Under the pieces are notes generated by a model. That model saw only the letters and a program-made list of their open reading frames with translations. It searched no databases and was not told the DNA's origin. From Chloroflexota bacterium (lineage in GTDB: Bacteria; Chloroflexota; Anaerolineae; Anaerolineales; UBA11858), in contig JBDRGC010000023.1 in the NCBI GenBank assembly GCA_043818215.1, positions 1,976 to 65,975 on the forward strand: 64,000 nucleotides of DNA, given 5' to 3'. This document shows, piece by piece, positions 15,253-49,615 of this stretch. The stretch's first letter is position 1, and every line of letters starts with the position of its first letter. The translations under genes and the position numbers were made by a program.

Positions 15253-15261
15253 GGATAATTG

Positions 15262-15349: not shown

Positions 15350-15353
15350 TATT

Positions 15354-16239: not shown

Positions 16240-16430
16240 AAAGTCAGTAGATCAGTAGATCAGTAAATCAGTAGATCAGTAAACCAGTAGATCAGTAAAC
16301 CAGTAGATCAGTAAACCAGTAGATCAGTAAACCAGTAAACCAGTTCTCCTGATCCCTAGTCCCTGATCCCTGATTTACTGATTCCTGATCTACTGATTTA
16401 CTGATTCCTGGTTTCCTGATTCCTGATTCC
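16240..16430. repeat. Octamer/heptamer hairpin (CAGTAGAT/CAGTAAAC arm against CTGATTTA/CTGATCC arm) filling the pstC-pstA spacer
   Basis: The left arm has about 12 units of 8 nt. The right arm is partly complementary (aatcagtaaatcagtagatcagg). It ends 1 nt before the pstC TAA. Confidence 0.9.
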
Positions 16431-16431
16431 T

Positions 16432-18543: not shown

Positions 18544-18597
18544 CAGCGCGGGATTATAGCCGTAAATCATGGCGTGGGCAAGTGTGGGAGGGCGGGG

Positions 18598-18773
18598 GCT
18601 AGAGGGTAGAGGGCAGAGGGTAGAGGGTAGAGGGGTTAGGGATCAGGGACTAGGGACAAGGGATCAGGCAGCCTAATATACTATATACTGGCTCCTGTCC
18701 TGGTTCCTGGTTCCTAGTCCCTGGTTCCTGGTTTCCTAGCCCCTGGTTCCTAGCCCCTAGTTCCTGGTTCCTG
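18598..18773. repeat. Large imperfect palindrome of heptamers (TAGAGGG, TCAGGGA/CTAGGGA against CCTGGTT/CCTAGTC) with the AT-rich loop taatatactatatact
   Basis: It occupies nearly the whole divergent pstS / pstB2 control region. Confidence 0.85.
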
Positions 18774-22139: not shown

Positions 22140-22280
22140 AACGGTTTTTATCCCACTCCGCTACGCTTCGGGGACGGTGTCACGCATCACGCATCACGCC
22201 TCACCCTCCACGCTCCACCCCTCCCCCCTCCACGCTCCACCCCTCCCCCCTCCCCCCTCCCCCCTCCACGCTTCACCTCA
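22127..22280. repeat. CGTGAAA units, core atcccactccgctacgcttcgggga, then CTCCACG/CCCTCCC arrays between convergent genes
   Basis: Read directly. The stop of the 21357 gene (VRET*) lies inside the cgtgaaacgtgaaacg units. Confidence 0.85.
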
Positions 22281-22750: not shown

Positions 22751-23631
22751 ATGAGAACCCCAAGCAGATTATACCGGACGACCCCGCTTATCTACAAATG
22801 CGAGTTGAGCCACTGTCCACAATGTAAGCAAGAATTGGTAGAAATGAACTATCTCAATGGTCTCAAAACGGTGCAGACAATGAGCCAGGTATCCACGATA
22901 GCCTACCGGCCGAAGCGCTGCACAGAACCAGGCTGTACCAGTTCCGAGGTTAGGTGGCCGTCTGCGACGTGGCAGCAAATTGCGCCGAAATACAGTATCT
23001 ATGGGTACGATGTGATTGCGCAGATCGGTTGGGAACGCCAAAAGGGTCGGGTGCATTTCGAGACGATTTACAAAAACCTGAGTGAACGGATACAGATCAG
23101 GGACTCGCAAGTGCGTCATCTGTATCATCAGCGTTATTTGCCCTTACTGGCCTGCCACACCTGCACTCACCGCAGGTGCAGTGTGAGCGTCAGCATTTCA
23201 GCGAACTCGAGGCATTGGCTCAGCGGTGCGGCTTGTTGCTGACCCTGGACGGTTTGATGCCGGAAGGGGGTGAACCGCAATTGTGGGTCATCCGCGAATT
23301 ACAGACAGGCTGGACACTGCGAAGCGGTTGGATGAATTGCCAGGATGAAAAGGCATTCATCGAGTTCCTGCAACCGATTGCGGCCTTGAATCTCCCCGTC
23401 AAGGCGGTGATGAGCGACAAACAACGTGCGTTGCTGCTGGCCGTGCAGGAGGTGTTTCCGAATGGGTTACATGGCTTTTGCCAGTTCCATTACTTGAACA
23501 ATGCTGCTGAACCCATCGCACAAGCTGATGAACAGATGAAAATCGAACTGCTTCAGACAGTGCGGGGGGAAGTTGGAGACCTGATCCGGCAAAATATCAC
23601 TCACTCTCAAACGGGCGTATACAGAAGTTAG
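22751..23631 (+). pseudogene. DDE-type transposase gene, frameshifted and 3'-truncated (IS remnant)
   Basis: N-terminal zinc finger CPQCK...CTEPGC. The second frame reads LLLTLDGLMPEGG...AVMSDKQRALL...FCQFHYLNN. The frame break coincides with a 26-nt palindromic insert (23159-23184). The ORF ends at a 'gtacacggat'-type element. Confidence 0.6.
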
Positions 23632-28600: not shown

Positions 28601-31600
28601 ATCTCGGAGCGGCCTATCGCTACCAATATAACGATAAACAATTACGCAGTTCTGCTTTCAGTTACGATCTATCGATTACCAATACGGTTGAATTGCACGA
28701 AAATTTAGACCGCTACACCACCACCACCGATTGGGAATACGTGGACGGCGGCAGCGAGGCAGATTGGGGCGATTTCGGCCACACCTGGCACAAAGCTGAA
28801 CCGGTTTACATCAACCGCACCGTCCAGCACCCGGATGGAGTCCCCTTTGAGGTTGCCGGGATCAACCAGAGCGTCCCGCTTTACCTCCTGGAGGGCTGGG
28901 CCGTCCCTTCCCAGAACTGCATCCTGGGGATTTGCACCATCTGGACAGATCGCGGCACCGAAAATTTCAACCTGGGCAGCGGCCTGAAATTCGACGTTTT
29001 CCCGGTCACCCTGGATGAATTCTATACCCTGACATCCAAAGATGGGGGTTACGCTCTCGCCTGGTCACAATCTGGCGATGTCACTTTCCCTCGCCTGGTC
29101 GATGGTGATGGAGACGGCATTCCCTACCCTGTCGATGCCCACGACAATGTTTGGGACAATGACGGCGACGGCCTCTCGGATAGTTTCGAGGTCAAGCTGG
29201 GTTCCAACCCGGATAATAAAGACAGCGACGGGGACGGCCTGCCCGACAACCTGGAATTGATCTCTGAAACCAACCCCCTGCGCACCGACAGCGACGGGGA
29301 TGGATTATCGGATGGTGCAGAAGTCTATCATCAAGATATTACCGATCATGACTCAGATGGCAATTTCACTGAATGGTTGGGGGGCTGGGAATATGGCTAC
29401 AATTTAAAACCCGATGGAACCCTGCAAACCACCTGGGTTTCATCATCCCCAATGAGTACAGACAGTGATGGCGATAGCCTCACAGATTTCCAGGAAAAAA
29501 CCTTTGGATTCAACCCCACCTGGATGTCAAATCCCACTATTTTGACCTTTGAATCCACCATTTCTGAGTCCGATGGGAGCGGCGGTTACACCGATTCGGA
29601 CGGTTTCGCCCTGCCGGGGGATACCCTTTATTACGCCGCCTCCGTGGAGAACGAACTCTACAACCGCTGGGCGCACGGCCTGCTGGATACCGATTTTCCC
29701 GGCGTGCTCGATGATGACGCCATTGACCCTCAACCCTTCCTGCTCTATCCTTTGGAGCAGCAGGTCATCGAGGGTCAGGTGCCCGTGGCGAACACTGCGG
29801 CCTCCGGCGTCTACAACCTGACCCAGACCGCCGGCGCCCTGATCTCCGATTGGGCCGAGCTGGCTTCGGGGGCTGCCCTGTGGTATCCCTTCGAGGATGA
29901 CGCCGCCGCAACCACTTACGCTGACCGCTCCGGGTCGATCCCTCCCGACGACGGCACCTGCTCGAACGCCACTCCGGGGGCGGGCTGCGTCCCCATTAAA
30001 AATGACGGCGTTTATGGCGGAAGCCTCAACTTCGATGGGACTGCCCGCGTTGCCTCAGACTACGATCCTGCGGACAACGCGTTCGCAATTTCATTGTGGT
30101 TCAAAACCACTGAGCCTAATGGCGGCCTGTTAGATACCCAAGGGTTCTGGGATCGCTGGTTGTATCTGTATGGTGGCAACGTCAAGGCCAGAATGTACAA
30201 CGGAGTTTCTCACCAAATCCTGACCAGCGCGCAGACCTACAACGATGGGGATTGGCATCATGTGGTGCATACCTTTGGCGGGTCAGCCGGTGGACAGAAA
30301 CTGTATGTGGACGGGCAGCGGGTCGACAGCGGGAGCTACACCACGGCCAGAGCCAGCACAAACGGGATCCGCCTCGGCTATGCCAATATCAGCGGCATTG
30401 GCTACTTCGACGGCAAAATCGATGATGTTCGACTTTTCGAGCGCGGCCTGACCTTCACAGAAGTGCAGGCAATCTTCGATACGCCCATCCTCGACCTGCG
30501 TTTCAACGAAAGTTCGGGATGGCAGGATTCCTCGCCTTTCGCAAACGATGCCTCTTGCACCGGAACCTGTCCCGATCACGTTGACGGCATCGATGGGCGG
30601 GGGGCCAATTTCAGTGGCAGTCACTATATCACTGTGCCCTCCGATGACAGCCTGAAACTCAACCAGGGCGGCTTTACCATTGGCGTCTGGATTTATCCGA
30701 CCGAATCCCCGGAGTATTGTTACCAGCGTGAGTTTTACAGCCCGCCCTGCGATATCTGGAAACCCCAGCCCCAGGGCATTTTGGGATTCGGCAGCGGGGA
30801 AGACAACGCTTACCCTACCTTACAGCGGGTGGGAAACGCGCTGCGCTTTACCTACGGGGACAAACCCTATTTCACCACCGGCGATGTCCTCCAGCCCAAC
30901 AAATGGAACCATGTGGCCGTGTCCTATGATGGCAGTGCTGTACTCATCTACGTTAACGGTGTGAAAGTCGCCGAAGATTCCACCACCTTCACCACGCCCC
31001 CGCCAGGGACCAAAACCCTGACAGTTGGCCGCAGTGGGACAGCCGGGACCTTCGAAGTCAAGAAAGTTCGCGTTGATGAAGAGGGCGACGGCATCGGGAA
31101 GGCCGAAATGTGTATCGCCTTTCGATCCTACGGCGGTGATTGGCAAACGGTCTTCGACCAGCAGGTGGATGGCGGACTGGTGGATGCATCTTATTTCCCC
31201 CTGCTTTACAATGTCGCCGCTGGCCCCTTCGAGTTCAATACCCTCGCGGATTTACGAGTCTGGGAGGATGATGGCGGGGAACACTGCGTCACGGTTAATA
31301 ATAAAAGTGATTCCGACCCCATAGATGACGGGGATGATGGCATGGGATTCTGGTCATTCCGCACGACGGATGTCAGCAAAGGGTTCGACAAGCTCTATTC
31401 CACCGACCCCACCACGGATCCCTACCGCCACTATGGGTTGATGGGATATTCCGGCGATTCTTCCGGTCATTTCTACATGGTCTACCACAACGACTCGATA
31501 CCCTTCTACGGCAAAATTGATGAGTTGCTGATCTACAACCGCCCCTTCGATGCTGACTCGGTTCTGGATATGTACCAGGCCCAGCGGCTTTCCCTGCACC

Positions 31601-34600
31601 TGAAATTCGACGACCCCCCCGGCGAGACCAGCTTCGTCGATTCGAGCTTTGGGCATCACAACGCCTCGTGCGGCGGCGCAGCCTGCCCTGTGGCTGGCGT
31701 TGCCGGCCGCGTTAACCAGGCCGCCATCTTCGATGGGAATGATCACCTGACCCTCGCCAACAGCGGGATCAACCGCCTGACCAACGAATTCAGCGTCGCG
31801 GCCTGGATCAGGCCGGAGAGCGTCAGCGGCTACCACCGTATTCTTTCTACGGCACGTACCAACAGCCACAACGGGTTTGCATTTGGCACTTACAACGACG
31901 GCCTGAGCTTCACAACCTTTGGGAAAAAGGATTACGCCCTGACCGGATTGGGCCTTGTGACCGGGAAATGGACTCACGTCGCCGCGGTGATGGACGAAAA
32001 CAACGCTGTCAGTTTCTACGTCAATGGCGTATTCCAGGACATCGTCGCCGGGTCATCCCCCGCGAGCGCGGATACCGACGATGCCCTCCTGGTGGGCGCG
32101 ACCACCGATAGCGGAAGCAGCGTCCGGATTCAGACCTTCAATGGCCGCATCGATGACCTCTACGTCTTCTCGAACGCCCTCAGCGAAGCCGGGATTCTAA
32201 ATCTTTACCAGAATGCCCCCGCCTTCCAACTCCACCTCGATGAAACCCAGAGCGCAACCGGTTTTTCAGATGATGCCAACCCCTCCCGAATGGTCTCCTG
32301 CACTGGCAGCCATTGCCCGCAGGTTGGTTTTGGTGTAGACGGCCAACTGGGGACCGCTGCCCAGTTTGATGGGGTCGATGATTATATCTACACGCCATAC
32401 AGTCAACAAACCACTGGAGATTTCTCCATCTCTGCCTGGGTGCGGCCCACCGCAATCCGGGACGGTCAGCAACCCATCTTTGTTCACTATGCCACATCCT
32501 ACGCAAACTTTGGGTTATTCATCAAGCCAGATTCGATGATTCCCCAGTTCCTGGCCCACGGTTGTGCTGGGGGGAGCGAGACAGTTCTCGATTCAGGATC
32601 CGCACTCATTATGAATTCCTGGAACCACATCGTAGGCACTTATAGCGGCGGGACGATGACGATCTATATCAACGGTGCCCCCCAAGGCAGCCAGAATTGG
32701 AACCGGTGCCAAAACCCTGGCCCGTTCTGGGTTGGCGGGAATGTGCCTGATACGGTGCCTTTTGCCGGTCAACTGGATGAAGTCACCCTCTACAATCACG
32801 CCCTCTCACGGCAAATGATCGCCGAGATTTTCAACTACCAGGGCAAATGGGTTCAAGAACGTCAGAGCCACAATATCGCCATCGATGACGATAACCCCAC
32901 CGTGACCCTGGAAACCACCGGCGACCGCCTGCCGGACACCGATGTCCAGATGCTGGTCATCGCCAGCGACCCCACTTCGGGCATCCAAAGTGTCCAGTTC
33001 GGCGTACAGGCTCCTGGGCAGAGCAGCTACACCTGGAGCGACGCGCCTCCCTGTCAGGATGCCGCCGCCGAGACCGCCTGGTGTCCCACCTTCAACCCCG
33101 CTGGCGAAGGGGCTTATAGCCTGCGCGCCAAAGTCACCGATTTGGTCGGCCATATTTCCACAACCGATGCCACCGTTTATGTGGACAATCAATCGCCCAC
33201 CGCCACTTTCGATTTCACCGCCAACGCACTCCTGCTCCCCACCCTCTCGGATACCCAGCCCAACACCTGGGAACTTGCTCTTTCAGGGATGATCAGCGAT
33301 CCGGATATCGGTTCGGAGGCGGGCAGCGGGGTGGCCGCCAGCAGCCTCCAGGTAAGCGTTTTCAATGAAAATGGAACCCTGGTCGGCCCAGCACCGCAGC
33401 CCCCGACTTTGAACGGGGACAATTGGAGCCTGGATTACGATATCGCCGAACCCTACCCCAGCGGCATTTTCACCGTCACCCTGACTGCCACGGATAAGAT
33501 CGTTTTACGGGCTGGATTGGATGATTCTCAACTAGATCGACATTCCCTTGAGACCTCCCGGTTGATTCAGATCGATGCCACACCCGCGGCGGGGTACCTG
33601 GATTTGGGAGGGGTTACAGCTCTCATCACGGACACTCAAACCCTGGAAGGGCAGGCCACCGAGCGTCCCGTTCACCTGCGCGTGGCATGGAATACCGACG
33701 CCCACGCCGACCAACTTGGGCTGGCAATCACCTGCAATGGCTTGATCCAGCACCAATTCCAGCCGGGGACTCTCCAACCTTTAGCCGATTCTTACTCCTG
33801 GAGCGGCGACGTCCACCGCGGCGCGGCCTGTCAGATCCATCTCACCGATACCGGCGGGGATGGCGGCACCAGTGGGACTATCGAGGCCTGCGGAGAAGAA
33901 ATCGCCGACTGGGATGCGAGTTTCGGCGGGGGGCAGGTAGTCAACTTTACGGCAGTTGCCGATGCCTGCGGCCCCTCCCTGGATGTGGCCGGGGTCGCGG
34001 GGGTCGAAACGGCCCTCGTCTCGGTGCTGCCCGGTTCGCCGTTTTACAACCAGGAACCCATCCCTGGGGCAACCCTACACCTGCCCTTTGACGATGTTCC
34101 CACAGCCAACGGAACACTTAGTTTCCGCGATATCTCTGGCGAAAACCGCAACGGCACCTGTACCGGGATCGCCTGTCCAACATGGGGACAGCCCGGCCAC
34201 GTTGGCAGAGCGGTGTCCTTTTCTGGGGCGCAATGGATCGATAGCACCAACTTCGATATCGACGATGACTTCACCCTGTCCCTGTGGATCAACCCGCTCG
34301 CGACCAGCGATGGACAGTCTTTCATCGGAAAACACACCTACGGAGGTTCCAACCTGATCGTTTTCGGTTTTTGGAACGGTGGTTATAGCTTCCGCATCCG
34401 CAGTGATTCTTACGATGCGGGCACAAAAACAACCGGCTGGCAGCATCTCGTTGTGGTCGGCCAAAAGACCTCCGCCACCACTACCCTCGTGACGGTCTAT
34501 AAAGACAACCAACTTCTCTGGCAGCATACTTTGAATGCTGTGGTGGGGAATGTATCTGGCAAACCCTGGAGCTTCGGCCAGGAATGGGATGGTAATACCC

Positions 34601-37600
34601 GCAGCGATTATTTCTCCGGCCTGATGGATGAGGCGCGTTTCTTCGACCGGGCCATGGACGCCGCCGAAATTAGCGAACTTAATATGGGAGCCAACCCGGT
34701 GCTGCACCTGCCCCTGGACGAATCCTGGGCCAGCAACGGAACGGCCCTCCCAGATCAATCAGGCTGGGCGCATGACGGCTGGCTCTCTGCCGGCATAGGT
34801 GACATGGTCAATAAGGCCGCCCCAGGCGGGGTTGGCCCCTACGCCCTCGATTTCGACGGGAGCGACGACCACATCACCATCCCGGATAGCAACGCCCTGG
34901 ATTTGGAACAGTTCAGCGTTGGGTTGTGGGTCAGGCCGGACACGTGGTCATATTCCGTGGATAACCCCCTGATTCTGAAGGGCAACCAAAGCGGGAATAA
35001 CCTCAACTATGGCATTTATATCACCGCTCAAGGGAAGCTCAGTTTCCGTTTTTATGATGCTTCTTGCACGACCCTGCACGCGGTAGAAGACGGCGTTGCC
35101 CCTCTCCATCAATGGAGCCACATCCTAGCAACTTACGATGGGACACAAGTGAGCATTTATCGAAATGGTCAGGTTGTCAAAACAGAAGCGGTTTCTGGGG
35201 GAGTCTGTCAAAATAATGATCCGGTGTGGATTGGCGAAACCCCAGGTGGGGTGACCACATACGAGGGCCTGATTGACGATGTGATCCTTTACCCGCGAGT
35301 GATTTCTGAACCTGAAGTGGAGAGTCTCTACGCGGCTGGTTGGCAATCGACTACCACAACACCGACAGGGGTCGGGGTGGAACTTTCCGATTGGAACACG
35401 AGCATCCCCGCCGGGCTAGAAGGAACTTTCCGATTAGATTTACGCGGCGAGGACATGAACGCTTTGGTCAGCAAACCCGAGGCGGCTTGGCAGGGCGAGA
35501 TCGACACTCTGGATCCACGAGTGACGCTGGATGCCCAGGTCAGCGGCGACACCGTCCAATACACCACCATCGCCGCCGACTGGAACCTGACCGAAAGTGG
35601 CTATAACACGCCCTGCGGTGCGGGGATCATCGACCAGCGGGAATATTTCGAGTCTCCCTGGTATCAGGCCTTGGGCACTGGCGAGCAGCGTGTTTATCAG
35701 CTAACGACACAATGCGAACACTCCATCGCGGAATTATCCGGCGAAGTTGGGGCCTACGATACCCCCGGACTATCTTATGGCGTTGCCGTCAGTTCCACTC
35801 TGTCGTATATCGCCGATGGGGAGGGTGGTCTGCAAATCGTGGACGTCTCTAACCCCGTTCAGCCCCAATTCGTCGGTTCTCTGGGTGGGATATATCCCTG
35901 GGCCGTGGCAGTCGCACCCGGGGGGGCAGTGTTGATACCTGATCTGATGGTCGACAGCATTGCCGTAGAACCGGCTTCCCCGGAGATCAACCAGGCCTTC
36001 ATCGTCAGTGTGACGGTCCGCAACCAGGGGGCTGGCACGGCCTGGAATTTCACCACTGCAATTTATCAGGATGCCCAACCCGCGGCCTGTGAGGGGTCGA
36101 TCCCCCAATGGACGGCTGCCATCCCGCGGCTGGATGCCGGTCAATCCGCGGTGGTGGCCTTCTCCCACTCCGGGTTTTCGTCTTTCACCCCCCACACCCT
36201 CTACGCCCAGGCGGATTCCGGCTGCATGGTCGCCGAGTCCGACGAAGCGAACAATATCGCCGGCCCGCTGTACATCACCGCTGTCCAATCGGACCTGGTG
36301 GTCGAAAGTTTGAGTTTCGATCCGGTTTCCCCGTTTGAAAACCAGCCCTTCACCATTACCGCGGTGATCTCCAATACGGGCACCGGGGCAGCGGCGACTT
36401 TTAGCACCACGATCTATATTGACCAGGCAATTGGATTCACAGACTGCAACGTTCCTGGCTGGGCTACTATGTCCGTATCATCGTTAGCGGCAGGCACTTC
36501 TACGGAGGTGGTCTTTAACCATTCTGGGCTCTCAGCCACGGGGGATTACGAAGTGATTGCTTATGCCGATTCGGGCTGCGATGTGGCCGAAAGCCAGGAA
36601 CTGAATAACCTTGCCGGCGATTGGGTCACTGTAGTCACAGCACCTAAACCGGATTTACTTATCACGCTTATTACCTCAGAAACCAACTCTCCCATCATCA
36701 ATCAGCCCTTTGTCGTCACTACCACCGTCCACAACCAGGGAACTGCGGCCAGTGGTGCTTTTACAACGACGGTCTTTTTGGACGAACAACCGTTAGCATG
36801 CCCGAATCTGACAGGACAGTTTGATGCCACCCGCATCACCAACCTCGATCCGGGCGAATCGGCCACCATCACATTCACCCATCCTGGGATATCAACGTAT
36901 GGCGGGCACTTTATCACATCTCAGGCTGACAGCCATTGTGAGGTGATTGAATCAATCGAGACCAACAACACTTCCACCAGGCTTAATTTGAACGTAGTTG
37001 ATCCTAACAAGCCAGACTTAACGATAGAAAACATCGTCACCCATCCGATAACCCCCACGATTAACCAATCCTTTATCATCAGTGTAACTTTGAAGAACCA
37101 GGGGCTGGGAATTGCTGTAGATTTCTATGGATACATTATGACTGCCATCTATCAGGATAAAGTACCTTCGAATTGTGATGAAGGTACTCTATGGATCTAT
37201 ACCGGTCCGCTCAACCCTGGTGAAACCAGGATCATTACCAGGACGCTGGCTGGGATATCCACGCCAGGGCCACACCAGTTTTATGCAAATGTCGATTCCG
37301 CATGTGAAATCTCAGAATCTAACGAAGACAATAACATCTTTGGGCCGATCACTGTAACAGCAAGAGCACCCGATCTCATCGTCGAAGAAATCGCCACCCA
37401 ACCCATCACGCCAACAATCAACCAATCTCTGGTGGTCAGTGTCACGATCAAAAATCAGGGGTTGGAGGCAGCTCAAAACTTCGATACAACTTTCTACTTC
37501 GACCATATCCCCTCCCAATGTGATGAGGGCGCGCCGGACTGGTATTTTGCTCATACCGATTACCTGACCGCTGGCGTTTCCACCGTGGTCACAATGACGT

Positions 37601-40449
37601 ATCCCGGTTTCAACAGTACCGGAACGCATCAGATTTACGCTCAGGCGGATGGCGCTTGCCAGGTGACTGAGGCCGACGAGGACAATAATATCTATGGCCC
37701 CCATGATGTTACCGTTTCCAGCTCGGGACCAGCCCCCGACCTGATCATCGAGGCCCTGGATACCCAGCCCGCCGCGCCGGGCGTCAACCAGCCTTTCAGC
37801 ATTACCGTACTCGTCAAGAACCAGGGCTTGCTGGGAACCGGCTCGTTCGACACCGGTGTCTTCATCAACGAGCAGCCCACAGGCGGATGCCATGATATAC
37901 CCTGGGATTACCAGATGATCTCGCTTGCAGCGGGGATCTCGACTACCCTGACGTTCGAACACCCCGGATTGATCGAGGGCGGCCCGAACGACATCTATGC
38001 CATGGCCGATGTATGGTGTACTGAAATAGAATCGAACGAATCCAACAATATCTTCGGCCCAATCACAATCGATGTGGCCGCATTGGATGGAAACCGCCGC
38101 CAGTCCTACGCCGGAGACTTCGCCTGGCCAGGGAAACCCCTCCTGGCGGTTTTCTCTCGGCTGGTATTTCGCCCAGGGTCGGGACAGCCCGTTGCGGGTC
38201 AGGTTGAGCCGTCCATGCAAGCATCAACCCCAACACTAACCAGCGTCTATACGTACACCTACGCTTATATCGCCGATGTCAGCTATGGGCTGAGGATCGT
38301 CGATGTCAGCGATCCGGCTTCCCCTGCACAGGTGGGCGCGCTGCCACTCCCCGGCCCAATGCGGAACATCGTCGTGGCGGGCGATTATGCCTATCTGGTC
38401 AGTCAATTCAACGGGTTATTTGTGGTCGATATCTCCAATCCGGGTTATCCGGGTCTGCTGGATTCTTACGCTACCCCGGGCCACACCGAAGGTCTGGATG
38501 TCAGCGGCGGATACGCCTACGTGGCCGACAGGTTGGCGGGCTTGCAGGTGATCGATGTCAGCGACCCCAACGCCCTGCAATGGAAAGCCGTTTACAACAC
38601 GCCGGGATACGCCTATGGTGTGGATATGGTTGGCGGGTACGCTTATGTAGCCGATGGCAGCGGTGGTTTGCAGGTGCTCGATATCTCGAATCCGTCGAGT
38701 CCCCAGTTTGTGGGAGAACTCGATTCTATATACGCTGTTGACATAGATGTGAACGGCAACACTGCCTATATTGTGACCGGCTCGCAGGGGCTGGCCGTGG
38801 TCGATATCTCCGATCCGGCTAATCCTGAACTCGAACGCTGGTTCAACACCCCCGGTTACGCGCAAGATGTGGTCTTCTCGGGGGAACTGGCCTATATTGC
38901 GGATCAAGACAGCGGGCTGCGGGTGATCAACCCTACCGAACACATACCCGAAGCCACGGCTTGCGACACCGCCGGGCATTGCACCACAGTGGAAATGACT
39001 CACTCCGCGGCCGATTTGGTGCAAGTTGCCCTGGATCGAAATCCGCAGGCCGAGATACATTTCCCATTGGCCGCGCCGCCGCTCTCGGTGGAAATTCTCA
39101 ACCTGCCGTCTGTCCTGGACAGCACCGCTCCCTTCACCATCACCGGCCATGCCACCAGCACCCTGACCACCCTGGAGTTGATCACGGTCACAGTGGATGG
39201 CACGGCGTTGATGGTTACAGGCTGGGTCAGCGGCACGCAAGAGAGTGATTGGAATGCCGGTTGGACTCCCGCCGGGGATGGGCCGCACCTCGTCCGGGCT
39301 GATGTTTTGGGTGCCTATGGCAGCACGGCCAGCGAGACCGTCACGGTGACGGTGGATACCCTGGCGCCAACCGTCAATATCTCACCGACGGTTTACACTA
39401 GTGCGGATTATTACGAGCCGCGCACCATCAACCTGCGCGGGGAGTATGCGGATGCGGGCGGGGTGGCGAGTGTCGAGTGGCGAGTGGCGGATGGCGAGTG
39501 GCGGGTGGCGAGTGGCGAGTGGCGGGTGGCGGGTGGCGAATGGCGGGGGGGCTGGTCGTTGGATGCTGGGCCGCTGCCGGATAATGAGACTTTCACCGTT
39601 TATGCACGCGCCACCGATATCGCCGGACATACTACTGAGATTAGCGAAACCGTCACCGTGGATGTGCTGCCGCCGGAGGCCGTTACCCTGACCCTGACCG
39701 GGAACGGCAGCCCTCTCGCCCCCGGCGAAATCCTGCCAACTGCGGCGGCCAACTTCGTCCTGACCTGGGATGCCAGCAGCGACGGCAGCGGGCTGGACGA
39801 CTATCAAGTCCGCTGGACGACCCAGGTCACGGACACGATCTCGGCGGAATTCACGCACACGGTTCCCACAACCGGCCCGTTGACCTCTGTCTACGCGGCT
39901 GTGGATGGGCAAAAGGTCTCTGTTGAGTTGGGCAGCCGGGATACACTCGGTAACCAGCGCTGGCAGAGTTTCGGCAGCGTGTTTGTGGACAGCCAGCTTG
40001 CGCTAGATTACATCGCCATGAATGTAGGGGATGAGGGTATGTACCGCGGCTGGATGGAGTCAGACTGCACCGATCTGGGGATTGACCGGCGGGCCAACCG
40101 CATTTATGGCAATATCCCCGCACAAGAACTCTTCGCCTCTTGGAATGCGGGAGCTTTGCGTCTGGCCTGGATTGGCGGCAACTGGTACGCCGATGGCGAC
40201 CTGTTCCTCTACCTGGATACAGCCGCAGGCGGTACGAACCAGGTCTATGATCCCTTCGGCGCTACCTACGACATCACCCTGCCCGATGGGATGCTGGCGG
40301 ATTACCTCGTGTGGGTGCAGGACGGGGAGACAGCCAGTTTGCTCCACTGGGAGGGGGGTTGGGTGGTTGCCAGTGATCAGTTACCAGTAAGCAGTTTTCA
40401 GTTTTCAGTGGTCAGTGGTTGGCGGTTACGGATTTGTATTTGCCTTTAG
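25129..40449 (+). CDS. Giant surface protein, segment 2 (TSP3 repeats, TM bundle, 6 LamG, Ig-like, 6 CARDB, LVIVD propeller)
   Basis: The frame is open from 25129 (TGA at 25126-25128). Recognisable sequence starts at 25243 (LDTDLDGIADAVE). The ORF track begins at GTG 25342. There is no SD and no ATG of its own. Confidence 0.75.
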   Translation, partial: SVFSLQSPVFSPQSPITNLQSLAQHPRQGAISNLQSPSLDTDLDGIADAVEQALGTEINDPDTDGDTLNDGVEFLRLGTDPLSKDSDGDGIFDNVEVTGFMDVNGLHWYLDPNSPDTNKDSRIDTEECHQLVGRNTVGDRKCSDTDGDSTPDIFDRDDDGDDVADPVDIYPMGMVDRDGQHTNGSNPNAFTDDHPFELKIESLQTGLPVFVDFQLRPENPDHLTYALNVLDWPSEDIEGQIQHVKHTTFASDFTDEQLTGNPSAANGDMRLIPMLELTISGDHVPFARTNPAIDVAVRGVISGTIQLEQASSNRDNTSLDFSFDDPGQDYTVKIYEGGCPVSGTPVKTYTNRSDGDSSTWTGKKVVDLANGTYALTVSNGTDTVCAAIGNIINGPYIYAMIDPEPLRPYGISVREADQNGTLIAYIPLNMVPDETGGGRVAFSARMAYELGTDATWDQAQQVRMVWMLEMLTDSCDSNGFEEDWAAMTLSDPTLGMKAGSKDAAFRTWCSLPEHRTPDTSRIVHTYDDSWILTGLAVREDHGLDVAVVYEDPAQGDVATSENLWQLSRGLAATFLVGRDCEDNDVTTYPDYDPDTGSCNDDTYRDISVYTNGPDGNTIGNTNIYNRFDASGSAADGDDQRWGIPKAALQVARFRYDSQDYATYLAMTETPDILEANFAHTDEPTLLFAREEHYRSADLGAASKSGSVFTVNMVSSNQPLQTVTGLKWMPYAYDDDTGWSPIPIRELWDDLIIQYEDTFAQTYPEDTEAANLGRAVVARSYYVSLIQGLVQQVEIGSDLLWQPDLEGEADDWVYSVETQLEYISFFGWILADVLKEAFDTYGTKWRFINISGFSVDSGVLKPWQSLLPVEEFHGALESIGEGIKSATWGPWASLFSGGVKSKIGAGIALAGAVAVVGLTIYGITQQSNALDIVSMVMTGLWVILAIQNLVSTAVQVIKAVQEAGSMAAAVSKGLSEATSNIKSTFKSAAVVGLIISVVATWAALGAQIGLSYGLGGGMSSIALGTAIAGAIAATVVMVIMFVIAAIPIVGQIIAAIIMLIDAVVSLFCTIFLDEEQAEHPAAEWFCGGLQGIVTKALTVLIYSGNVMVELYPEDYDRLEFYDFLADDLVDPDLGISVGNKVKYSLSITNTIDIAPLPDDLGAAYRYQYNDKQLRSSAFSYDLSITNTVELHENLDRYTTTTDWEYVDGGSEADWGDFGHTWHKAEPVYINRTVQHPDGVPFEVAGINQSVPLYLLEGWAVPSQNCILGICTIWTDRGTENFNLGSGLKFDVFPVTLDEFYTLTSKDGGYALAWSQSGDVTFPRLVDGDGDGIPYPVDAHDNVWDNDGDGLSDSFEVKLGSNPDNKDSDGDGLPDNLELISETNPLRTDSDGDGLSDGAEVYHQDITDHDSDGNFTEWLGGWEYGYNLKPDGTLQTTWVSSSPMSTDSDGDSLTDFQEKTFGFNPTWMSNPTILTFESTISESDGSGGYTDSDGFALPGDTLYYAASVENELYNRWAHGLLDTDFPGVLDDDAIDPQPFLLYPLEQQVIEGQVPVANTAASGVYNLTQTAGALISDWAELASGAALWYPFEDDAAATTYADRSGSIPPDDGTCSNATPGAGCVPIKNDGVYGGSLNFDGTARVASDYDPADNAFAISLWFKTTEPNGGLLDTQGFWDRWLYLYGGNVKARMYNGVSHQILTSAQTYNDGDWHHVVHTFGGSAGGQKLYVDGQRVDSGSYTTARASTNGIRLGYANISGIGYFDGKIDDVRLFERGLTFTEVQAIFDTPILDLRFNESSGWQDSSPFANDASCTGTCPDHVDGIDGRGANFSGSHYITVPSDDSLKLNQGGFTIGVWIYPTESPEYCYQREFYSPPCDIWKPQPQGILGFGSGEDNAYPTLQRVGNALRFTYGDKPYFTTGDVLQPNKWNHVAVSYDGSAVLIYVNGVKVAEDSTTFTTPPPGTKTLTVGRSGTAGTFEVKKVRVDEEGDGIGKAEMCIAFRSYGGDWQTVFDQQVDGGLVDASYFPLLYNVAAGPFEFNTLADLRVWEDDGGEHCVTVNNKSDSDPIDDGDDGMGFWSFRTTDVSKGFDKLYSTDPTTDPYRHYGLMGYSGDSSGHFYMVYHNDSIPFYGKIDELLIYNRPFDADSVLDMYQAQRLSLHLKFDDPPGETSFVDSSFGHHNASCGGAACPVAGVAGRVNQAAIFDGNDHLTLANSGINRLTNEFSVAAWIRPESVSGYHRILSTARTNSHNGFAFGTYNDGLSFTTFGKKDYALTGLGLVTGKWTHVAAVMDENNAVSFYVNGVFQDIVAGSSPASADTDDALLVGATTDSGSSVRIQTFNGRIDDLYVFSNALSEAGILNLYQNAPAFQLHLDETQSATGFSDDANPSRMVSCTGSHCPQVGFGVDGQLGTAAQFDGVDDYIYTPYSQQTTGDFSISAWVRPTAIRDGQQPIFVHYATSYANFGLFIKPDSMIPQFLAHGCAGGSETVLDSGSALIMNSWNHIVGTYSGGTMTIYINGAPQGSQNWNRCQNPGPFWVGGNVPDTVPFAGQLDEVTLYNHALSRQMIAEIFNYQGKWVQERQSHNIAIDDDNPTVTLETTGDRLPDTDVQMLVIASDPTSGIQSVQFGVQAPGQSSYTWSDAPPCQDAAAETAWCPTFNPAGEGAYSLRAKVTDLVGHISTTDATVYVDNQSPTATFDFTANALLLPTLSDTQPNTWELALSGMISDPDIGSEAGSGVAASSLQVSVFNENGTLVGPAPQPPTLNGDNWSLDYDIAEPYPSGIFTVTLTATDKIVLRAGLDDSQLDRHSLETSRLIQIDATPAAGYLDLGGVTALITDTQTLEGQATERPVHLRVAWNTDAHADQLGLAITCNGLIQHQFQPGTLQPLADSYSWSGDVHRGAACQIHLTDTGGDGGTSGTIEACGEEIADWDASFGGGQVVNFTAVADACGPSLDVAGVAGVETALVSVLPGSPFYNQEPIPGATLHLPFDDVPTANGTLSFRDISGENRNGTCTGIACPTWGQPGHVGRAVSFSGAQWIDSTNFDIDDDFTLSLWINPLATSDGQSFIGKHTYGGSNLIVFGFWNGGYSFRIRSDSYDAGTKTTGWQHLVVVGQKTSATTTLVTVYKDNQLLWQHTLNAVVGNVSGKPWSFGQEWDGNTRSDYFSGLMDEARFFDRAMDAAEISELNMGANPVLHLPLDESWASNGTALPDQSGWAHDGWLSAGIGDMVNKAAPGGVGPYALDFDGSDDHITIPDSNALDLEQFSVGLWVRPDTWSYSVDNPLILKGNQSGNNLNYGIYITAQGKLSFRFYDASCTTLHAVEDGVAPLHQWSHILATYDGTQVSIYRNGQVVKTEAVSGGVCQNNDPVWIGETPGGVTTYEGLIDDVILYPRVISEPEVESLYAAGWQSTTTTPTGVGVELSDWNTSIPAGLEGTFRLDLRGEDMNALVSKPEAAWQGEIDTLDPRVTLDAQVSGDTVQYTTIAADWNLTESGYNTPCGAGIIDQREYFESPWYQALGTGEQRVYQLTTQCEHSIAELSGEVGAYDTPGLSYGVAVSSTLSYIADGEGGLQIVDVSNPVQPQFVGSLGGIYPWAVAVAPGGAVLIPDLMVDSIAVEPASPEINQAFIVSVTVRNQGAGTAWNFTTAIYQDAQPAACEGSIPQWTAAIPRLDAGQSAVVAFSHSGFSSFTPHTLYAQADSGCMVAESDEANNIAGPLYITAVQSDLVVESLSFDPVSPFENQPFTITAVISNTGTGAAATFSTTIYIDQAIGFTDCNVPGWATMSVSSLAAGTSTEVVFNHSGLSATGDYEVIAYADSGCDVAESQELNNLAGDWVTVVTAPKPDLLITLITSETNSPIINQPFVVTTTVHNQGTAASGAFTTTVFLDEQPLACPNLTGQFDATRITNLDPGESATITFTHPGISTYGGHFITSQADSHCEVIESIETNNTSTRLNLNVVDPNKPDLTIENIVTHPITPTINQSFIISVTLKNQGLGIAVDFYGYIMTAIYQDKVPSNCDEGTLWIYTGPLNPGETRIITRTLAGISTPGPHQFYANVDSACEISESNEDNNIFGPITVTARAPDLIVEEIATQPITPTINQSLVVSVTIKNQGLEAAQNFDTTFYFDHIPSQCDEGAPDWYFAHTDYLTAGVSTVVTMTYPGFNSTGTHQIYAQADGACQVTEADEDNNIYGPHDVTVSSSGPAPDLIIEALDTQPAAPGVNQPFSITVLVKNQGLLGTGSFDTGVFINEQPTGGCHDIPWDYQMISLAAGISTTLTFEHPGLIEGGPNDIYAMADVWCTEIESNESNNIFGPITIDVAALDGNRRQSYAGDFAWPGKPLLAVFSRLVFRPGSGQPVAGQVEPSMQASTPTLTSVYTYTYAYIADVSYGLRIVDVSDPASPAQVGALPLPGPMRNIVVAGDYAYLVSQFNGLFVVDISNPGYPGLLDSYATPGHTEGLDVSGGYAYVADRLAGLQVIDVSDPNALQWKAVYNTPGYAYGVDMVGGYAYVADGSGGLQVLDISNPSSPQFVGELDSIYAVDIDVNGNTAYIVTGSQGLAVVDISDPANPELERWFNTPGYAQDVVFSGELAYIADQDSGLRVINPTEHIPEATACDTAGHCTTVEMTHSAADLVQVALDRNPQAEIHFPLAAPPLSVEILNLPSVLDSTAPFTITGHATSTLTTLELITVTVDGTALMVTGWVSGTQESDWNAGWTPAGDGPHLVRADVLGAYGSTASETVTVTVDTLAPTVNISPTVYTSADYYEPRTINLRGEYADAGGVASVEWRVADGEWRVASGEWRVAGGEWRGGWSLDAGPLPDNETFTVYARATDIAGHTTEISETVTVDVLPPEAVTLTLTGNGSPLAPGEILPTAAANFVLTWDASSDGSGLDDYQVRWTTQVTDTISAEFTHTVPTTGPLTSVYAAVDGQKVSVELGSRDTLGNQRWQSFGSVFVDSQLALDYIAMNVGDEGMYRGWMESDCTDLGIDRRANRIYGNIPAQELFASWNAGALRLAWIGGNWYADGDLFLYLDTAAGGTNQVYDPFGATYDITLPDGMLADYLVWVQDGETASLLHWEGGWVVASDQLPVSSFQFSVVSGWRLRICICL
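27830..28345 (+). other. Internal cluster of about 5-6 predicted transmembrane helices in the giant protein
   Basis: IGAGIALAGAVAVVGLTIYGI; LDIVSMVMTGLWVILAIQNLV; AAVVGLIISVVATWAALGAQIGL; IALGTAIAGAIAATVVMVIMFVIAAIPIVGQIIAAIIMLIDAVVSLF. Confidence 0.6.
29095..29520 (+). other. Thrombospondin type-3-like Ca-binding repeats (a second cluster; the first is at 25243-25640)
   Basis: DGDGDGIPYPVD, DNDGDGLSDSFE, DSDGDGLPDNLE, DSDGDGLSDGAE, DSDGDSLTDFQE. Confidence 0.8.
29878..35343 (+). other. Six LamG/ConA-like (Laminin_G_3-type) modules separated by an Ig-like stretch (32870-34030)
   Basis: Each module begins L(H/W)LPxDE... and ends like F.G.IDDVRLF.RAL...E(I/V)..L(Y/F). Example: YFDGKIDDVRLFERGLTFTEVQAIF. 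The second module carries a nested insert of about 150 aa (about 31040-31490). Confidence 0.75.
35938..38080 (+). other. Six tandem CARDB-like modules (about 120 aa each)
   Basis: Starts are PDLMVDSIAVEP, SDLVVESLSFDP, PDLLITLITSE, PDLTIENIVTHP, PDLIVEEIATQP and PDLIIEALDTQP. Each has V.N.G and ES(D/N)E.NN. Confidence 0.8.
38250..38935 (+). other. LVIVD-repeat beta-propeller (6 repeats, plus one isolated repeat near 35790)
   Basis: YAYIADVSYGLRIVDVSDP, YAYLVSQFNGLFVVDISNP, YAYVADRLAGLQVIDVSDP, YAYVADGSGGLQVLDISNP and further repeats. Confidence 0.8.
39461..39544 (+). repeat. Intragenic array 2: 12 heptamers (GAGTGGC/GGGTGGC), 84 nt, in frame
   Basis: Hand-indexed units. Translated as VASVEWRVADGEWRVASGEWRVAGGEW inside an Ig-like region. 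Confidence 0.9.
40371..40426 (+). repeat. Intragenic array 3: 7-8 heptamers (CAGTGAT CAGTTAC CAGTAAG CAGTTTT x2 CAGTGGT x2)
   Basis: Hand-indexed at 49-56 nt. The break between the 25342 frame and the 40419 frame lies here. Confidence 0.85.
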
Positions 40450-43091
40450 ATATGATTGGACTGCACGCCGGGGATAGCTTCAGCCTGCTGGGAATTGCCA
40501 CCGAGAACGATTCGCTCAACATCTGGGCGACTCTGCCAAATGCAAATCCGGTCAACAGCAAAAAGGCCCTGGGGCGATTGTTCACCCTGGACGAAGAGAA
40601 CGACTTCCAACTCAGCCATGCTTACCACTGGGATGCCCTGAGCGCTGGGATTTGCCCGAATGGGAGCATCACACCGGCCGCAGGCGCTTACCTGGATACG
40701 GAGGTGCAGGTCAATCTCTCGGCTGACCCGGCTGGAGCCAGCTTCAACCTGATGGGGGATGGTCTCTTCTGGCTGCAAAACCTGCTTTTGGGCAGTCCGC
40801 CCGCCGATGTGACCACCCAACTGGATTTCCTGGCGGGCGATCAAACCCCGCTCCATCACGAGCAAACCGTCACGTATACCCTCTCTTATCGCAATCGCGG
40901 TTCAGACATAGCTTACGGCGTTTTTGCAAATGTTGAAGCTCTATTTGCCATGACACTGCCGGGCGGGAATTCGGTACCCATCGGAGATATTCCTCCCGGT
41001 GCGGATGGTGAGGTCACTTTCACGGGCGTGGTGGATACCAACATCAGCGCTGAACCCTGGGCAGGGGTAGCCATAGAAATCTTCGACGCCGCCCATCCGG
41101 ATTCGGGGAACCCCATCGAGTGGTTGTGGACCCATCACCGGGTGGACAACACCGGGCCGGAATTCTTCGGCGCCCAGCAGCCGGCCTATCTCCTGGGGCC
41201 AGGGATGAATACCCTGCGAGGTTACGCCTACGATCCTGCCGGGGTCAAGGATCTGACGGTACAGGTTCAGGGCAGCGGCCAGACTTTCGACTGTCCAGAT
41301 TCCACACCAATGGATGGAACCTGGTCGTGTGATTGGGAAGTCAGCGGTCAAAATAACGACCTGTTCACCCTACAACTCCAGGCCACAGATGGCTTCGGCC
41401 TGACCAGCGGCTGGAGTCCGGGACAAACTTTCTTGCTGGATAAGCAGGCCCCCATCGTCACTCTGGATATTAGCGTTACGAGTGTGTTTTCCGGCAGCCT
41501 CGTTCACGGATCACGTTTCACGCTTTACGGGGATGTCGAGGACAACGGCGGATTGGGCCGGGTGGATGTCTGCGTTGATGGGGATTGCCAGCAGGCCGAC
41601 CTGCGCTTGCAGCCTGGTCAGGGAGCGGTGACGGTTGCGGATACCCCCGGGACGCCGGTCGCTATCAATAACGGGACCCCCTGCAATGGTAGCGAGATAC
41701 TGGTCACTTTTGGGGTGGCAGAATCCTTCGCGGTTGGTAACGTCCAACTCGGCTTCGTCGCAGAACACGAGCGGCGGGATGATCTGCGGGTCACTTTGAT
41801 ATCCCCGTTGGGGACGGCTGTCCAGTTGCTGACTGACGATGGCATCTCCGGGACGGATTTCCGGCATGCCGATTTCTGGTTCGCTGATGCCGCCCCCCTT
41901 GATTTCAGCCAGGCACTTGGCGATCACGATCCGGGCGCGCCGGATTATGAACATTTCGCCCGGCCAGACCAGCCTTTGAGCGCGTTTTGGGGCCAGGCAG
42001 CGCAGGGAGATTGGACGCTAGAGATTTGCGACTTGAATCCGAACACGGACGACGGGGCTTACTTGAGCAGCCAGTTGACTTTGATACCTCAAGAAACGCA
42101 TAGCAAATCCGGGCGTTGGTCTCAACAAGTTCAAATTTCAGATACAGATGGCCTAGATTACGTCACCAAAGAGATCAGGGTTTATGGGCAGGATTTGGTC
42201 GGCAACCGCACGGGGAACCCGCTGGCGTTGGATTTGATCATCGACAGTGTGGCGCCGGTCATCACGGTGACAGCGGAAATTACGCAAGGTACGTTGGGTG
42301 ACACGGTTGTGGTGTTGGGCGGAGTTGTGACCGATGGCGGGCCGGCGACGAATCTCAGCGTGCATGTCTACCCGCCGGAAGGAACGCCATACAGCGTTCG
42401 GGCCGCTCGAAATGGGGACGGCTGGGAATTCGAGTTGGACTTCACACTCGTGGGGACGTACACGCTGTGGGTCAATGCCAGCGACCTGGCGGGGAACGCT
42501 GCCACGACCGGGCCGTTCGAAGTGGTTGTCCGACCACCCACACAGGTTTTCTTGCCGTTGGTCTTGAGTAATTCCGCCGCCGGGCAGGGTGTGCATGGCC
42601 CCGATCTGGTCGTCGAGCATATCCTGGTCACCCAAAACAATGTCCAAATTATCATTGCCAACCACGGCAATGCGCCCGTAGCAGACGCCTTCTGGGTTGA
42701 TCTGTATATCGACCCAGACCCGATTCCGACTGCTGTCAACCAGACCTGGGACATGCTGTGCTATGAGGGATTGGCTTGGGGTGTGACCGATGTGTCCTCG
42801 CTGATTCCAGGAGGCACACTTACAATAGACATGAATCACCCCAGCTTCAGGCCGGATTACAGCCTGCTCTATGACGATTTTGATCCGGCGATGGCGATCT
42901 ACGTTCAGGTAGACTCTTATGCCAGCACGACCTACGGCGGGGTTCTGGAAAGCCACGAGGTCGAGGGCACGGCTTATAACAATATTTCTGGGCCGACTTT
43001 CCCCTTGCCCATCAGCCTGGATCAGGATATTCTGCAATTTATGCAATCATCCCCAACACAGGATGAGATCAACTTGCTTCCTGAGCGTTAA
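40377..43091 (+). CDS. Giant surface protein, segment 3 (Ig-like repeats, proprotein-convertase P-domain at about 41702-42090, terminal CARDB-like domain)
   Basis: The frame is open from 40377. The track start is TTG 40419, with no SD. P-domain pattern: GNVQLGFVAEHERRDDLRVTLISPLGTAVQLL...GDWTLEICD. The C-terminal module starts PDLVVEHILV. Confidence 0.75.
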   Translation, partial: SVTSKQFSVFSGQWLAVTDLYLPLDMIGLHAGDSFSLLGIATENDSLNIWATLPNANPVNSKKALGRLFTLDEENDFQLSHAYHWDALSAGICPNGSITPAAGAYLDTEVQVNLSADPAGASFNLMGDGLFWLQNLLLGSPPADVTTQLDFLAGDQTPLHHEQTVTYTLSYRNRGSDIAYGVFANVEALFAMTLPGGNSVPIGDIPPGADGEVTFTGVVDTNISAEPWAGVAIEIFDAAHPDSGNPIEWLWTHHRVDNTGPEFFGAQQPAYLLGPGMNTLRGYAYDPAGVKDLTVQVQGSGQTFDCPDSTPMDGTWSCDWEVSGQNNDLFTLQLQATDGFGLTSGWSPGQTFLLDKQAPIVTLDISVTSVFSGSLVHGSRFTLYGDVEDNGGLGRVDVCVDGDCQQADLRLQPGQGAVTVADTPGTPVAINNGTPCNGSEILVTFGVAESFAVGNVQLGFVAEHERRDDLRVTLISPLGTAVQLLTDDGISGTDFRHADFWFADAAPLDFSQALGDHDPGAPDYEHFARPDQPLSAFWGQAAQGDWTLEICDLNPNTDDGAYLSSQLTLIPQETHSKSGRWSQQVQISDTDGLDYVTKEIRVYGQDLVGNRTGNPLALDLIIDSVAPVITVTAEITQGTLGDTVVVLGGVVTDGGPATNLSVHVYPPEGTPYSVRAARNGDGWEFELDFTLVGTYTLWVNASDLAGNAATTGPFEVVVRPPTQVFLPLVLSNSAAGQGVHGPDLVVEHILVTQNNVQIIIANHGNAPVADAFWVDLYIDPDPIPTAVNQTWDMLCYEGLAWGVTDVSSLIPGGTLTIDMNHPSFRPDYSLLYDDFDPAMAIYVQVDSYASTTYGGVLESHEVEGTAYNNISGPTFPLPISLDQDILQFMQSSPTQDEINLLPER

Positions 43092-48954: not shown

Positions 48955-49019
48955 GGGGGATCTCCTCTTTGTTTGCTAAATGTGAGGTGAGTCTAATATA
49001 ATTGCACGGGGGCGTCAAC

Positions 49020-49612
49020 GATTCAGCGAGTCTGCGAGTCAACGAGTCTGCGAGTCAGCGAGTCAGCGAGTCAACGAGCAAATCAGCCCCCCGAATGAAT
49101 TCGGGGTCTGGTATTGGAAACATGCTAAAGCATGTTGCGGCACGCCCTGAACCTGCTTTAGCAGGTTTCTCGTAGCAGCATCGAACACCTGCACTTGCGT
49201 TTAGGTGCAAGTGTTCATTCGATGTCGGTCAGCGAGTCAACGAGTCAACGAGTCAACGATCAAATCACCCCCCGAATGAATTCGGGGTCTGGTATTGGAA
49301 ACATGCTAAAGCATGTTGCGGTACGCCTTGAACCTGTTTTAACAGATTTCTCGTAGCAGCATCGAACACCTGCACTTGCGTTTAGGTGCAAGTGTTCATT
49401 CGATGTCGGTCAACGAGTCGACGAGTCTGCAACTCGCCGACTCGCAAACTCACCGACTCGCCGACCTACCAACTCGCCAACTCGCCGACCCTGACTCGCC
49501 GACTCGCTGACTTGCTGACTCCCCAACTTGACACCCCCCACCCAAATCTGCTATACTATCCCCGACTGGTCAGACCACTTACCAGTGAAACAAACTCGCC
49601 ACTCGCCACTCG
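49020..49612. repeat. Composite palindromic region: CGAGTCA-type arrays, two tandem copies of a 182-nt four-hairpin module (49079-49260, 49261-about 49440), and inverse GACTCGC-type arrays
   Basis: Module hairpins are ccccgaaTGAAttcgggg, aacatgcTAAAgcatgtt, aacctgcTTTAgcaggtt and catcgaacacctgcacttgcg..gtgcaagtgttcattcgatg. The period is 49261-49079 = 182. Confidence 0.85.
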
Positions 49613-49615
49613 CCC

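Follow-up and report, generated by a model that had tools for sequence, protein, structure and literature searches.

What interrupts the reading frame of a giant gene within a short array of heptanucleotide repeats is the question raised by a locus in the genome of a Chloroflexota bacterium of the order Anaerolineales (UBA11858). The locus lies in a stretch of 64,000 nucleotides (nt) from the GenBank assembly GCA_043818215.1 (contig JBDRGC010000023.1, positions 1,976 to 65,975 of the forward strand), which was analyzed in full and is hereafter called the window; all coordinates refer to it. Three consecutive open reading frames (ORFs) on the plus strand, of 540, 5,035 and 890 codons, are parts of one interrupted gene that extends from 23996 to 43091 and comprises approximately 6,370 codons. 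The first and second parts are separated by junction 1, and the second and third by junction 2, the main subject here; a heptamer array is located at each of these junctions. The evidence presented below suggests that the break at junction 2 was probably caused by the loss of one unit from a heptanucleotide microsatellite inside this single giant gene, via slipped-strand mispairing.

At 40371-40419, seven units of the form CAGTNNN follow one another (CAGTGAT CAGTTAC CAGTAAG CAGTTTT CAGTTTT CAGTGGT CAGTGGT), and two degenerate units, TGGCGGT and TACGGAT, extend the array to 40433, for a total of 9 units and 63 nt. The longest perfect runs within the array consist of two units, CAGTTTT x2 and CAGTGGT x2, and the only homopolymer runs at the junction are two TTTT. 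A pattern of five CAGT tetranucleotides spaced 7 nt apart, with at most one mismatch allowed, matches the window 8 times, against 0.00 matches expected (none in 100 dinucleotide-preserving shuffles of the window), and these matches are confined to junction 1 (25116-25168), junction 2 and a segment of the minus strand at 10905-10936. The ORF upstream of junction 2 (25342-40449, 5,035 codons) is in frame 1 mod 3 and the one downstream of it (40419-43091, 890 codons) is in frame 0 mod 3, so that the two overlap out of frame by 31 nt. Frame 1 is closed by the TAG codon at 40447-40449, 28 nt past the array, and the last stop in frame 0 is the TGA within the first unit, CAGTGAT (40374-40376). Both junctions start with CAGTGATCAGT, the TGA of which closes the downstream frame in each case, and both shift the frame in the same direction, from 2 to 1 at junction 1. 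A preliminary description of this DNA, made from the sequence alone, had reported the CAGTNNN array, the frames on its two sides, the two perfect doublets and the similarity of the shift to that at junction 1, all of which we could reproduce; its statement that the downstream frame is closed only by the TGA of the first unit holds within the array but not beyond it, given that frame 0 is closed also farther upstream, at about 40248.

The evidence that the break reflects a change in the number of units comes primarily from an orthologue encoded in a metagenome scaffold from ENA (L001; 70% amino acid (aa) identity), the only relative found for which DNA across junction 2 is available. The L001 array region, which is in frame, consists of ten degenerate heptamer units, or 70 nt (CAGCGAT CCGTTGC CAGTCAC CAATTAT CAGTGGT CCGCTGT TAGCGGT TCGTGGT CAGCGGT CAGCGAT), compared to 9 in the window, and Tandem Repeats Finder (TRF) detects period 7 at 803-843 of L001; the apparent gene break in this scaffold is a run of N introduced by scaffolding. 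In the MAFFT alignment of the two DNA sequences, the window contains a single 7-nt gap, which is located inside the array. Addition of one CAGTGGT in silico joins the second and third ORFs into a single ORF of 5,918 codons, and the peptide that spans the junction includes ...FQFSVVSGQWLAVTDLYLPL... Because the repaired window protein, WVVASDQLPVSSFQFSVVSGQWLAVTDLYLPL, aligns to the L001 protein, WTVVSDPLPVTNYQWSAVSGSWSAVSDLYLPF, without gaps (alignment columns 261-297), the window is one whole unit short of the in-frame state, and a whole-unit change, with the window 7 nt shorter than L001, explains the difference in frame between the two orthologues. The preference of the preliminary description for a change in length at the DNA level, or a sequencing error, over programmed frameshifting is thus borne out by this comparison. 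Two scans of genome contigs, with the fused junction protein and with the window/L001 alignment as queries, found no relative, and a scan of metagenome contigs yielded only a weak match to an Ig domain (L002, 34% identity over 74 residues) and no second orthologue of junction 2.

The comparison with L001 also shows that the selective constraint on the gene is similar on the two sides of the break. The ratio of nonsynonymous to synonymous substitution rates (dN/dS) is 0.126 upstream of junction 2 and 0.140-0.145 downstream of it, and there is no stop in the 890 codons of the downstream part; accordingly, the break appears to be recent, reversible or not real. Neither relaxed constraint nor further lesions, which would be typical of a pseudogene, were detected downstream of the junction, with the proviso that this test is insensitive to very recent inactivation.

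The position of the array with respect to the conserved features of the protein also suggests that a single gene is involved. When the 273 residues that precede the junction 2 array were used as the query of an exhaustive HMMER search, 383 homologues were recovered, many of them proteins of 4,000-6,600 aa in which the matched region is located 1,000-1,500 aa before the C-terminus. The array codes for the stretch between the motifs 'W.G.W' and 'TDLYLP', which are conserved in a domain that is not covered by Pfam (no match at E<=10) and for which a sequence search of PDB produced no match either. Measurement of the stretch that separates 'W..G..W' from 'TDLYLPF' in 59 homologues gave a modal length of 21 aa (range 14-36) and the consensus '.....L....YRFD......GQ'; in the window protein with 7 nt added and in L001, this stretch consists of 24 aa, and both proteins retain the pattern L....[FY]Q[FW]. 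Given this modal length and the location of the region 1,000-1,500 aa before the C-terminus, the break is internal to a conserved domain, in what is one protein. A separate protein homology search, in which the longest matches listed were 883 aa and 861 aa, apparently missed the giant proteins; it left out the window's own 4,001-aa product, notwithstanding the 100% identity over half of the query. In the collections searched, the proteins of the window were found on a single contig.

The array itself is a microsatellite specific to this lineage; the segment of the conserved domain in which it lies is native and constrained in length. There is no 7-nt periodicity at the position of junction 2 in the DNA of L003, which encodes a more distant, 50%-identical homologue, so the microsatellite arose in the lineage of the window and L001. 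Among 272 proteins of the family, 7-aa periodic segments were found only in the window protein, at 39463-39545, and in one other protein, so heptamer-coded segments are not a general trait of the family. An origin of the array as a foreign insertion was considered and rejected, given the conserved length of the segment in the 59 homologues and the retention of the 'L....[FY]Q[FW]' pattern. Because dS between the window and L001 is saturated (1.2-1.8), the perfect doublets must be younger than the split between the two lineages, indicating that units have continued to be gained and lost within the limits of a constrained length.

We infer the following sequence of events. The tract would have lost one 7-nt unit, most simply through contraction of CAGTGGT x3 to x2, by slipped-strand mispairing while the DNA was being replicated or repaired. 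A loss of 7 nt, a number that is not divisible by 3, would throw the 3' 890 codons into the -1 frame, and translation of the main piece would end 28 nt beyond the tract. Such an event would be recent; it could represent a standing polymorphism of the unit count, an OFF state that can be reversed, or the onset of gene decay. Slippage as the cause, the presence of the deficit in the cells beyond the assembly, and the loss of a unit here as opposed to a gain in L001 all appear probable. Several considerations weigh against this scenario. The number of units is taken from the assembly consensus, where an assembly error could mimic a loss; the single orthologue with DNA across the junction is distant (70% aa identity, with saturated dS), and loss in the window is favored over gain in L001 by frame and collinearity only. 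Furthermore, perfect tracts of just two units are a weak substrate for slippage by the standards of classical phase-variable loci, and the fact that the gene is broken twice with the same sign might point to a systematic cause; with only two events (n=2), the same sign is expected by chance in 50% of the cases.

The assignment of all three ORFs to one gene rests on evidence from both junctions. Piece A (23996-25115, plus strand, frame 2) encodes a predicted signal peptide followed by a conserved N-terminal domain of about 280 aa, a membrane-spanning stretch and a 'SWDPHxNP' motif; its mechanical ORF continues out of frame to 25618. Junction 1 (25116-25245, plus strand) consists of heptamer arrays in the variable linker after the membrane segment (CAGTGTT CAGTGAT CAGTCTT CAGTCTT CAGTCTC CAGTCTT CAGTCCC CAATCCC ... 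CAATCTC x4), with the change from frame 2 to frame 1 located between 25129 and about 25262. Frame 1 contains no start codon from its TGA (25126-25128) to 25342, and repeats of the TSP3 type are encoded already from about 25262, so these repeats must be joined to piece A. In seven homologues (P0005, P0006, P0007, P0014, P0017, P0018 and P0020), the piece A domain is located at the N-terminus of single proteins of 5,400-6,400 aa, in agreement with the earlier interpretation of junction 1 as a comparable break and identifying it as a second break in the same gene. A homologue search with piece A yielded 177 matches, of which all the named ones belong to Chloroflexota (Anaerolineae, Caldilineaceae, Chloroflexia and Herpetosiphonaceae). 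Addition of one unit at each junction produces an ORF of 6,369 codons, from 23996 to 43091, which is in the size range of the intact homologues from Chloroflexota (5,400-6,400 aa).

Piece B (25129-40449, plus strand, frame 1; mechanical ORF of 5,035 codons from the GTG at 25342 to the TAG at 40447-40449) contains TSP3_bac, Laminin_G_3, CARDB, LVIVD and Big_13 domains. Piece C (40377-43091, plus strand, frame 0; mechanical ORF of 890 codons from the TTG at 40419, without internal stops) encodes the remainder of the split domain, followed by a P_proprotein domain (the P-domain of proprotein convertases), Big_13 and a C-terminal CARDB-like region. With this domain composition, the product of the gene is predicted to be a giant secreted, membrane-anchored, adhesin-like surface protein. 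Piece B includes one more array, at 39463-39545 on the plus strand, which consists of approximately 12 GTGGCGA units (84 nt), is in frame and encodes 28 aa with 'EWRVA.G' repeated four times; it replaces a native segment that is of similar length in the homologues (compare 'VEWRIAAGAWQ' in P0010). This array shows that heptamer arrays are tolerated within the giant gene when the unit count preserves the frame.

The foremost alternative is that the break is an artefact of assembly or consensus calling, such that the true sequence is in frame, with 10 units, one heptamer having been lost by the assembler or polisher both here and at junction 1. We consider this explanation unlikely but serious enough to be kept in mind. 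Both breaks in 19 kb of the gene are located in tandem arrays, which are the likeliest places for consensus errors, and piece C has remained intact, under a constraint similar to that on the upstream part. Homologous giant genes are often fragmented in other assemblies (L003, L009, L010 and L011), and the L001 contig ends just downstream of the position equivalent to the GTGGCGA array at 39463-39545, where this array would begin, suggesting that such arrays disturb assembly. However, the tract of 63 nt is spanned by single short reads, so that its collapse is not expected, and the remaining approximately 19 kb of the gene contain no other frameshift, which speaks against a generally error-prone long-read consensus. 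Moreover, polymorphism of the unit number in a natural population would look alike.

A special case of the unit-loss scenario is that the arrays constitute an evolved contingency (phase-variation) switch, with both tracts caught in the OFF state and the full-length protein alternating between ON and OFF or giving way to truncated forms. Simple sequence repeat (SSR) contingency loci include the CTCTT repeats of the opa genes of Neisseria, the tetranucleotide tracts of Haemophilus and the 7-bp repeats at the hmw promoters of Haemophilus influenzae. Background on this class of loci is available in PMC4692102 and PMC12721329. Junction 2 resembles such loci in part only. The similarities are that nine units, each of 7 nt and hence not divisible into whole codons, form a tandem repeat within the coding sequence of a predicted surface protein (signal peptide, membrane segment, TSP3, Laminin_G_3, CARDB, LVIVD, Big_13 and P-domain), and that gain or loss of a single unit alters the frame, with a truncated product as the result. 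In contrast to typical contingency loci, the tract is not a long, perfect and highly mutable one; it is heterogeneous, with a CAGT core and three variable nucleotides per unit and perfect runs of two units at most, and is located inside a conserved folded domain, in an environmental Chloroflexota bacterium rather than a host-adapted pathogen, and is known here from one assembled sequence.

In favor of a switch, the product of the gene is a surface protein, judging by its signal peptide and adhesin-type domains, a third of the possible unit counts would be ON, the turnover of units appears to be recent while the 3' part remains intact and constrained, and there are two tracts in one gene as well as a third, in-frame one at 39463. 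However, two-unit perfect runs imply low expected rates of switching, and the case is built on a single assembled sequence, with no variation in length seen within a population. In addition, the tract is located inside a folded, conserved domain rather than in a leader or linker, so that even in-frame changes would alter a structural segment, and the relatives show plain gene decay, with deletion remnants in L005 and L006 and an insertion sequence (IS) in L007. On balance, we regard an evolved switch as improbable. Equally doubtful is the broader proposal that heptamer microsatellites with a CAGT core were recruited as reversible switches at two points of the giant gene and are tied to a genome-wide heptamer-generating process that can overwrite coding segments at constant length; if true, gain and loss of units would toggle between anchor-only, truncated and full-length products, a contingency strategy in a free-living filamentous environmental bacterium.

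The fate of the gene in its relatives is pertinent to the question of decay. Two frame breaks in a gene that is represented by single proteins of 5,400-6,400 aa in its homologues are what would be expected of a pseudogene, and the locus is similar to the frameshifted giant-adhesin pseudogenes found in metagenome-assembled genomes (MAGs) in that a multidomain gene is split into consecutive ORFs on the same strand. Shifts by 1 nt, the insertion of an IS or deletions account for the splits seen in relatives of the giant gene (L003, L007, L009-L011 and L005). Specifically, L003 contains a frame shift without an array; in L007, an IS encoding a DDE transposase is inserted in the homologous giant gene; L011 has a +1 shift in a TSP3 repeat (approximately 5300-5620), without an array, with an identical 513-aa product encoded on 7 contigs; and L009 and L010, which look like long-read assemblies, each contain several shifts, one of which in L009 (5209-5241) changes the frame from 2 to 1 at a heptamer array of GCCAACC x4.7. 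The 75%-identical relative of piece A in L005 (214-1716) and L006 (P0154), for which two independent assemblies give the same product, jumps to mid-gene sequence and then ends, and so is a deletion remnant of the giant gene; at 708-819 of L005, it carries an in-frame insertion of 24 aa encoded by an 8-mer and a 7-mer array. Unlike the MAG pseudogenes, both breaks in the window are whole-unit changes of microsatellites, and no decay is seen elsewhere in the gene. A conserved recoding site at the position of junction 1 was also considered and found no support, given that, among the relatives, only L009 breaks at a heptamer array.

Programmed recoding at junction 2, either by a -1 shift in which tRNA-Phe would slip on UUUU (at 40395 or 40402) or by a 14-nt hop between matching CAG codons, appears very improbable. 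Admittedly, both junctions require the same -1 (or +2) shift and start with the same CAGTGATCAGT sequence, the four-T runs permit perfect re-pairing of one tRNA, and matching codons return at a 7-nt spacing. However, neither junction contains an in-frame slippery heptamer of the form X XXY YYZ, an absence that the preliminary description had noted for junction 2. The RNA from 40360 to 40480 has a minimum free energy of -29.3 kcal/mol, compared to the shuffle mean of -30.3 (z = 0.28, for pseudoknot-free folding), and 112 of the 200 shuffled sequences fold at least as well. The frameshift is not conserved, given the uninterrupted frame of L001 and the single ORFs of the distant homologues, and the product of a slip or hop would be 2-5 aa shorter than the L001 protein, whereas addition of 7 nt results in exact collinearity. 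Junction 2 thus lacks each of the tested hallmarks of programmed -1 frameshifting, namely a slippery heptamer, a stimulatory RNA structure and conservation in the orthologue, which supports the earlier judgment that this mechanism is less likely. Functional gene fission, which would make pieces B and C two genes and the array a counterpart of the intergenic heptamer arrays found ahead of many start codons in this genome, is hardly credible: nearly all other arrays of the window are indeed intergenic or located at gene ends, and potential start codons (TTG at 40419, TTG at 40440 and ATG at 40452) come after the array, but the domain whose conserved motifs flank the split is uninterrupted in the 59 measured homologues and in L001, there is no Shine-Dalgarno-like sequence, promoter consensus or terminator near the junction, and a 31-nt out-of-frame overlap of ORFs is typical of a frameshift.

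Unit loss from a microsatellite within one giant gene remains the preferred explanation, and the other tandem repeats of the window support it. In a strict tandem-repeat scan for periods 4-12, period 7 was by far the most common, with 15 runs, followed by period 8 with 4 runs and periods 4 and 6 with one run each, and there were none at other periods; in a separate count, the merged TRF calls amount to approximately 30 loci of period 7 (some of period 8) in 64 kb. Because period 7 dominates the tandem repeats of the window, heptamer slippage is likely to be active across this genome. Nearly all of the approximately 30 array loci are intergenic or located at gene ends, including the spacers between the genes of the pst operon, and only the giant gene contains internal ones. 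Examples of such arrays are located at 8408-8522, 15268-15348, 16244-16431, 17337-17549, 18588-18773, 22180-22277 and 49014-49614. The recurring families of units are GTGGCGA, CAG[CT]GGT, GTGGAGG/CGTGAAG and G-rich units such as AGCGGGA, which is repeated 28.7 times. Scans of the window against Rfam and for tRNAs produced no matches.

An excess of heptamer repeats in many bacteria, together with a proposed connection to polymerase slippage, is reported in PMC4692102 (citing Mrazek et al. 2007). The abundance of heptanucleotide arrays in the window, most of them intergenic, is reminiscent of the short tandemly repeated repetitive (STRR) heptamers of the cyanobacteria Calothrix and Nostoc and the (GGGANTN)n repeats of Xanthomonas (PMC4692102), which are also heterogeneous, with a conserved core and variable positions, and vary in length between relatives. 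In contrast to these repeats, the arrays described here come from a different phylum and belong to other unit families (CAGTNNN, GTGGCGA, CAG[CT]GGT, GTGGAGG, AGCGGGA and others), and the junction 2 array lies in a coding sequence and breaks the frame. A cyanobacterial origin, considered on account of the heptamer arrays, was rejected: there are no HIP1 octamers, and the named homologues are from Chloroflexota. The units also differ from those of STRR.

Another potential parallel is with the TAACTGA direct repeats of Beggiatoaceae, Cyanobacteria and Bacteroidetes, which are mostly intergenic heptamer arrays with an ACTGA/TCAGT core (MacGregor 2015, PMC4679880); occasional 'reverse' copies of these repeats in ORFs encode peptides similar to LSVISYQ (PMC4679880). 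Unit 2 of junction 2 together with the preceding base reads TCAGTTA, the exact reverse complement of TAACTGA, and an out-of-frame reading of the array contains '...VISYQ'. Unlike the TAACTGA repeats, the units of junction 2 have only the TCAGT core in common with them, the other three positions being variable, and show no link to start codons, and the host belongs to a different phylum. The common core may reflect relatedness or coincidence. In the literature searched, we found no account of such heptamer arrays in Chloroflexota.

A frameshift caused by a change in SSR unit number in a surface-protein gene is of a known kind; the setting, namely a heptamer unit, a folded domain and a bacterium of the phylum Chloroflexota, is less usual. 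In practical terms, the three ORFs are best regarded as a single, interrupted gene, in which the break represents a change in repeat number. The locus is a clean example of a 7-nt microsatellite that arose within a conserved protein domain and then broke the frame by one unit, in a host genome where, as seen in the window, nearly every intergenic spacer contains heptamer arrays. Should the unit number prove heterogeneous, this would be a case of SSR-driven ON/OFF variation of a giant adhesin in Chloroflexota, of which we found no report in the literature searched; otherwise, the break would be an assembly slip or a young pseudogene. The more interesting thread, in our opinion, is the genome-wide presence of heptamer arrays and their capacity to remodel coding segments.

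Several additional features of the window involve arrays or neighbors of the giant gene. Two adjacent 8-mer arrays, (TCAGTAAA)n at 16244-16344 and (CTGATTTA)n at 16370-16431, are mutual reverse complements and together form a long potential hairpin between two pst genes. On the minus strand, at 14497-16077, the mechanical ORF of a phosphate-transporter ATPase consists of 526 codons, with the ABC domain starting from residue 295; the N-terminal 'extension' of this ORF, which crosses the arrays at 15268-15348, is probably non-coding. At 49046-49427, a unit of 181 nt is repeated 2.1 times with 94% identity and is embedded in 8-mer arrays (GTCAGCGA/GTCAACGA, then ACTCGCCG); this unit contains the palindrome CCCCCCGAATGAATTCGGGG and could be a small mobile or RNA-coding element. 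Finally, fragments of a transposase of the Mutator/MULE family are spread over two overlapping ORFs (22751-23631) directly upstream of the giant gene.

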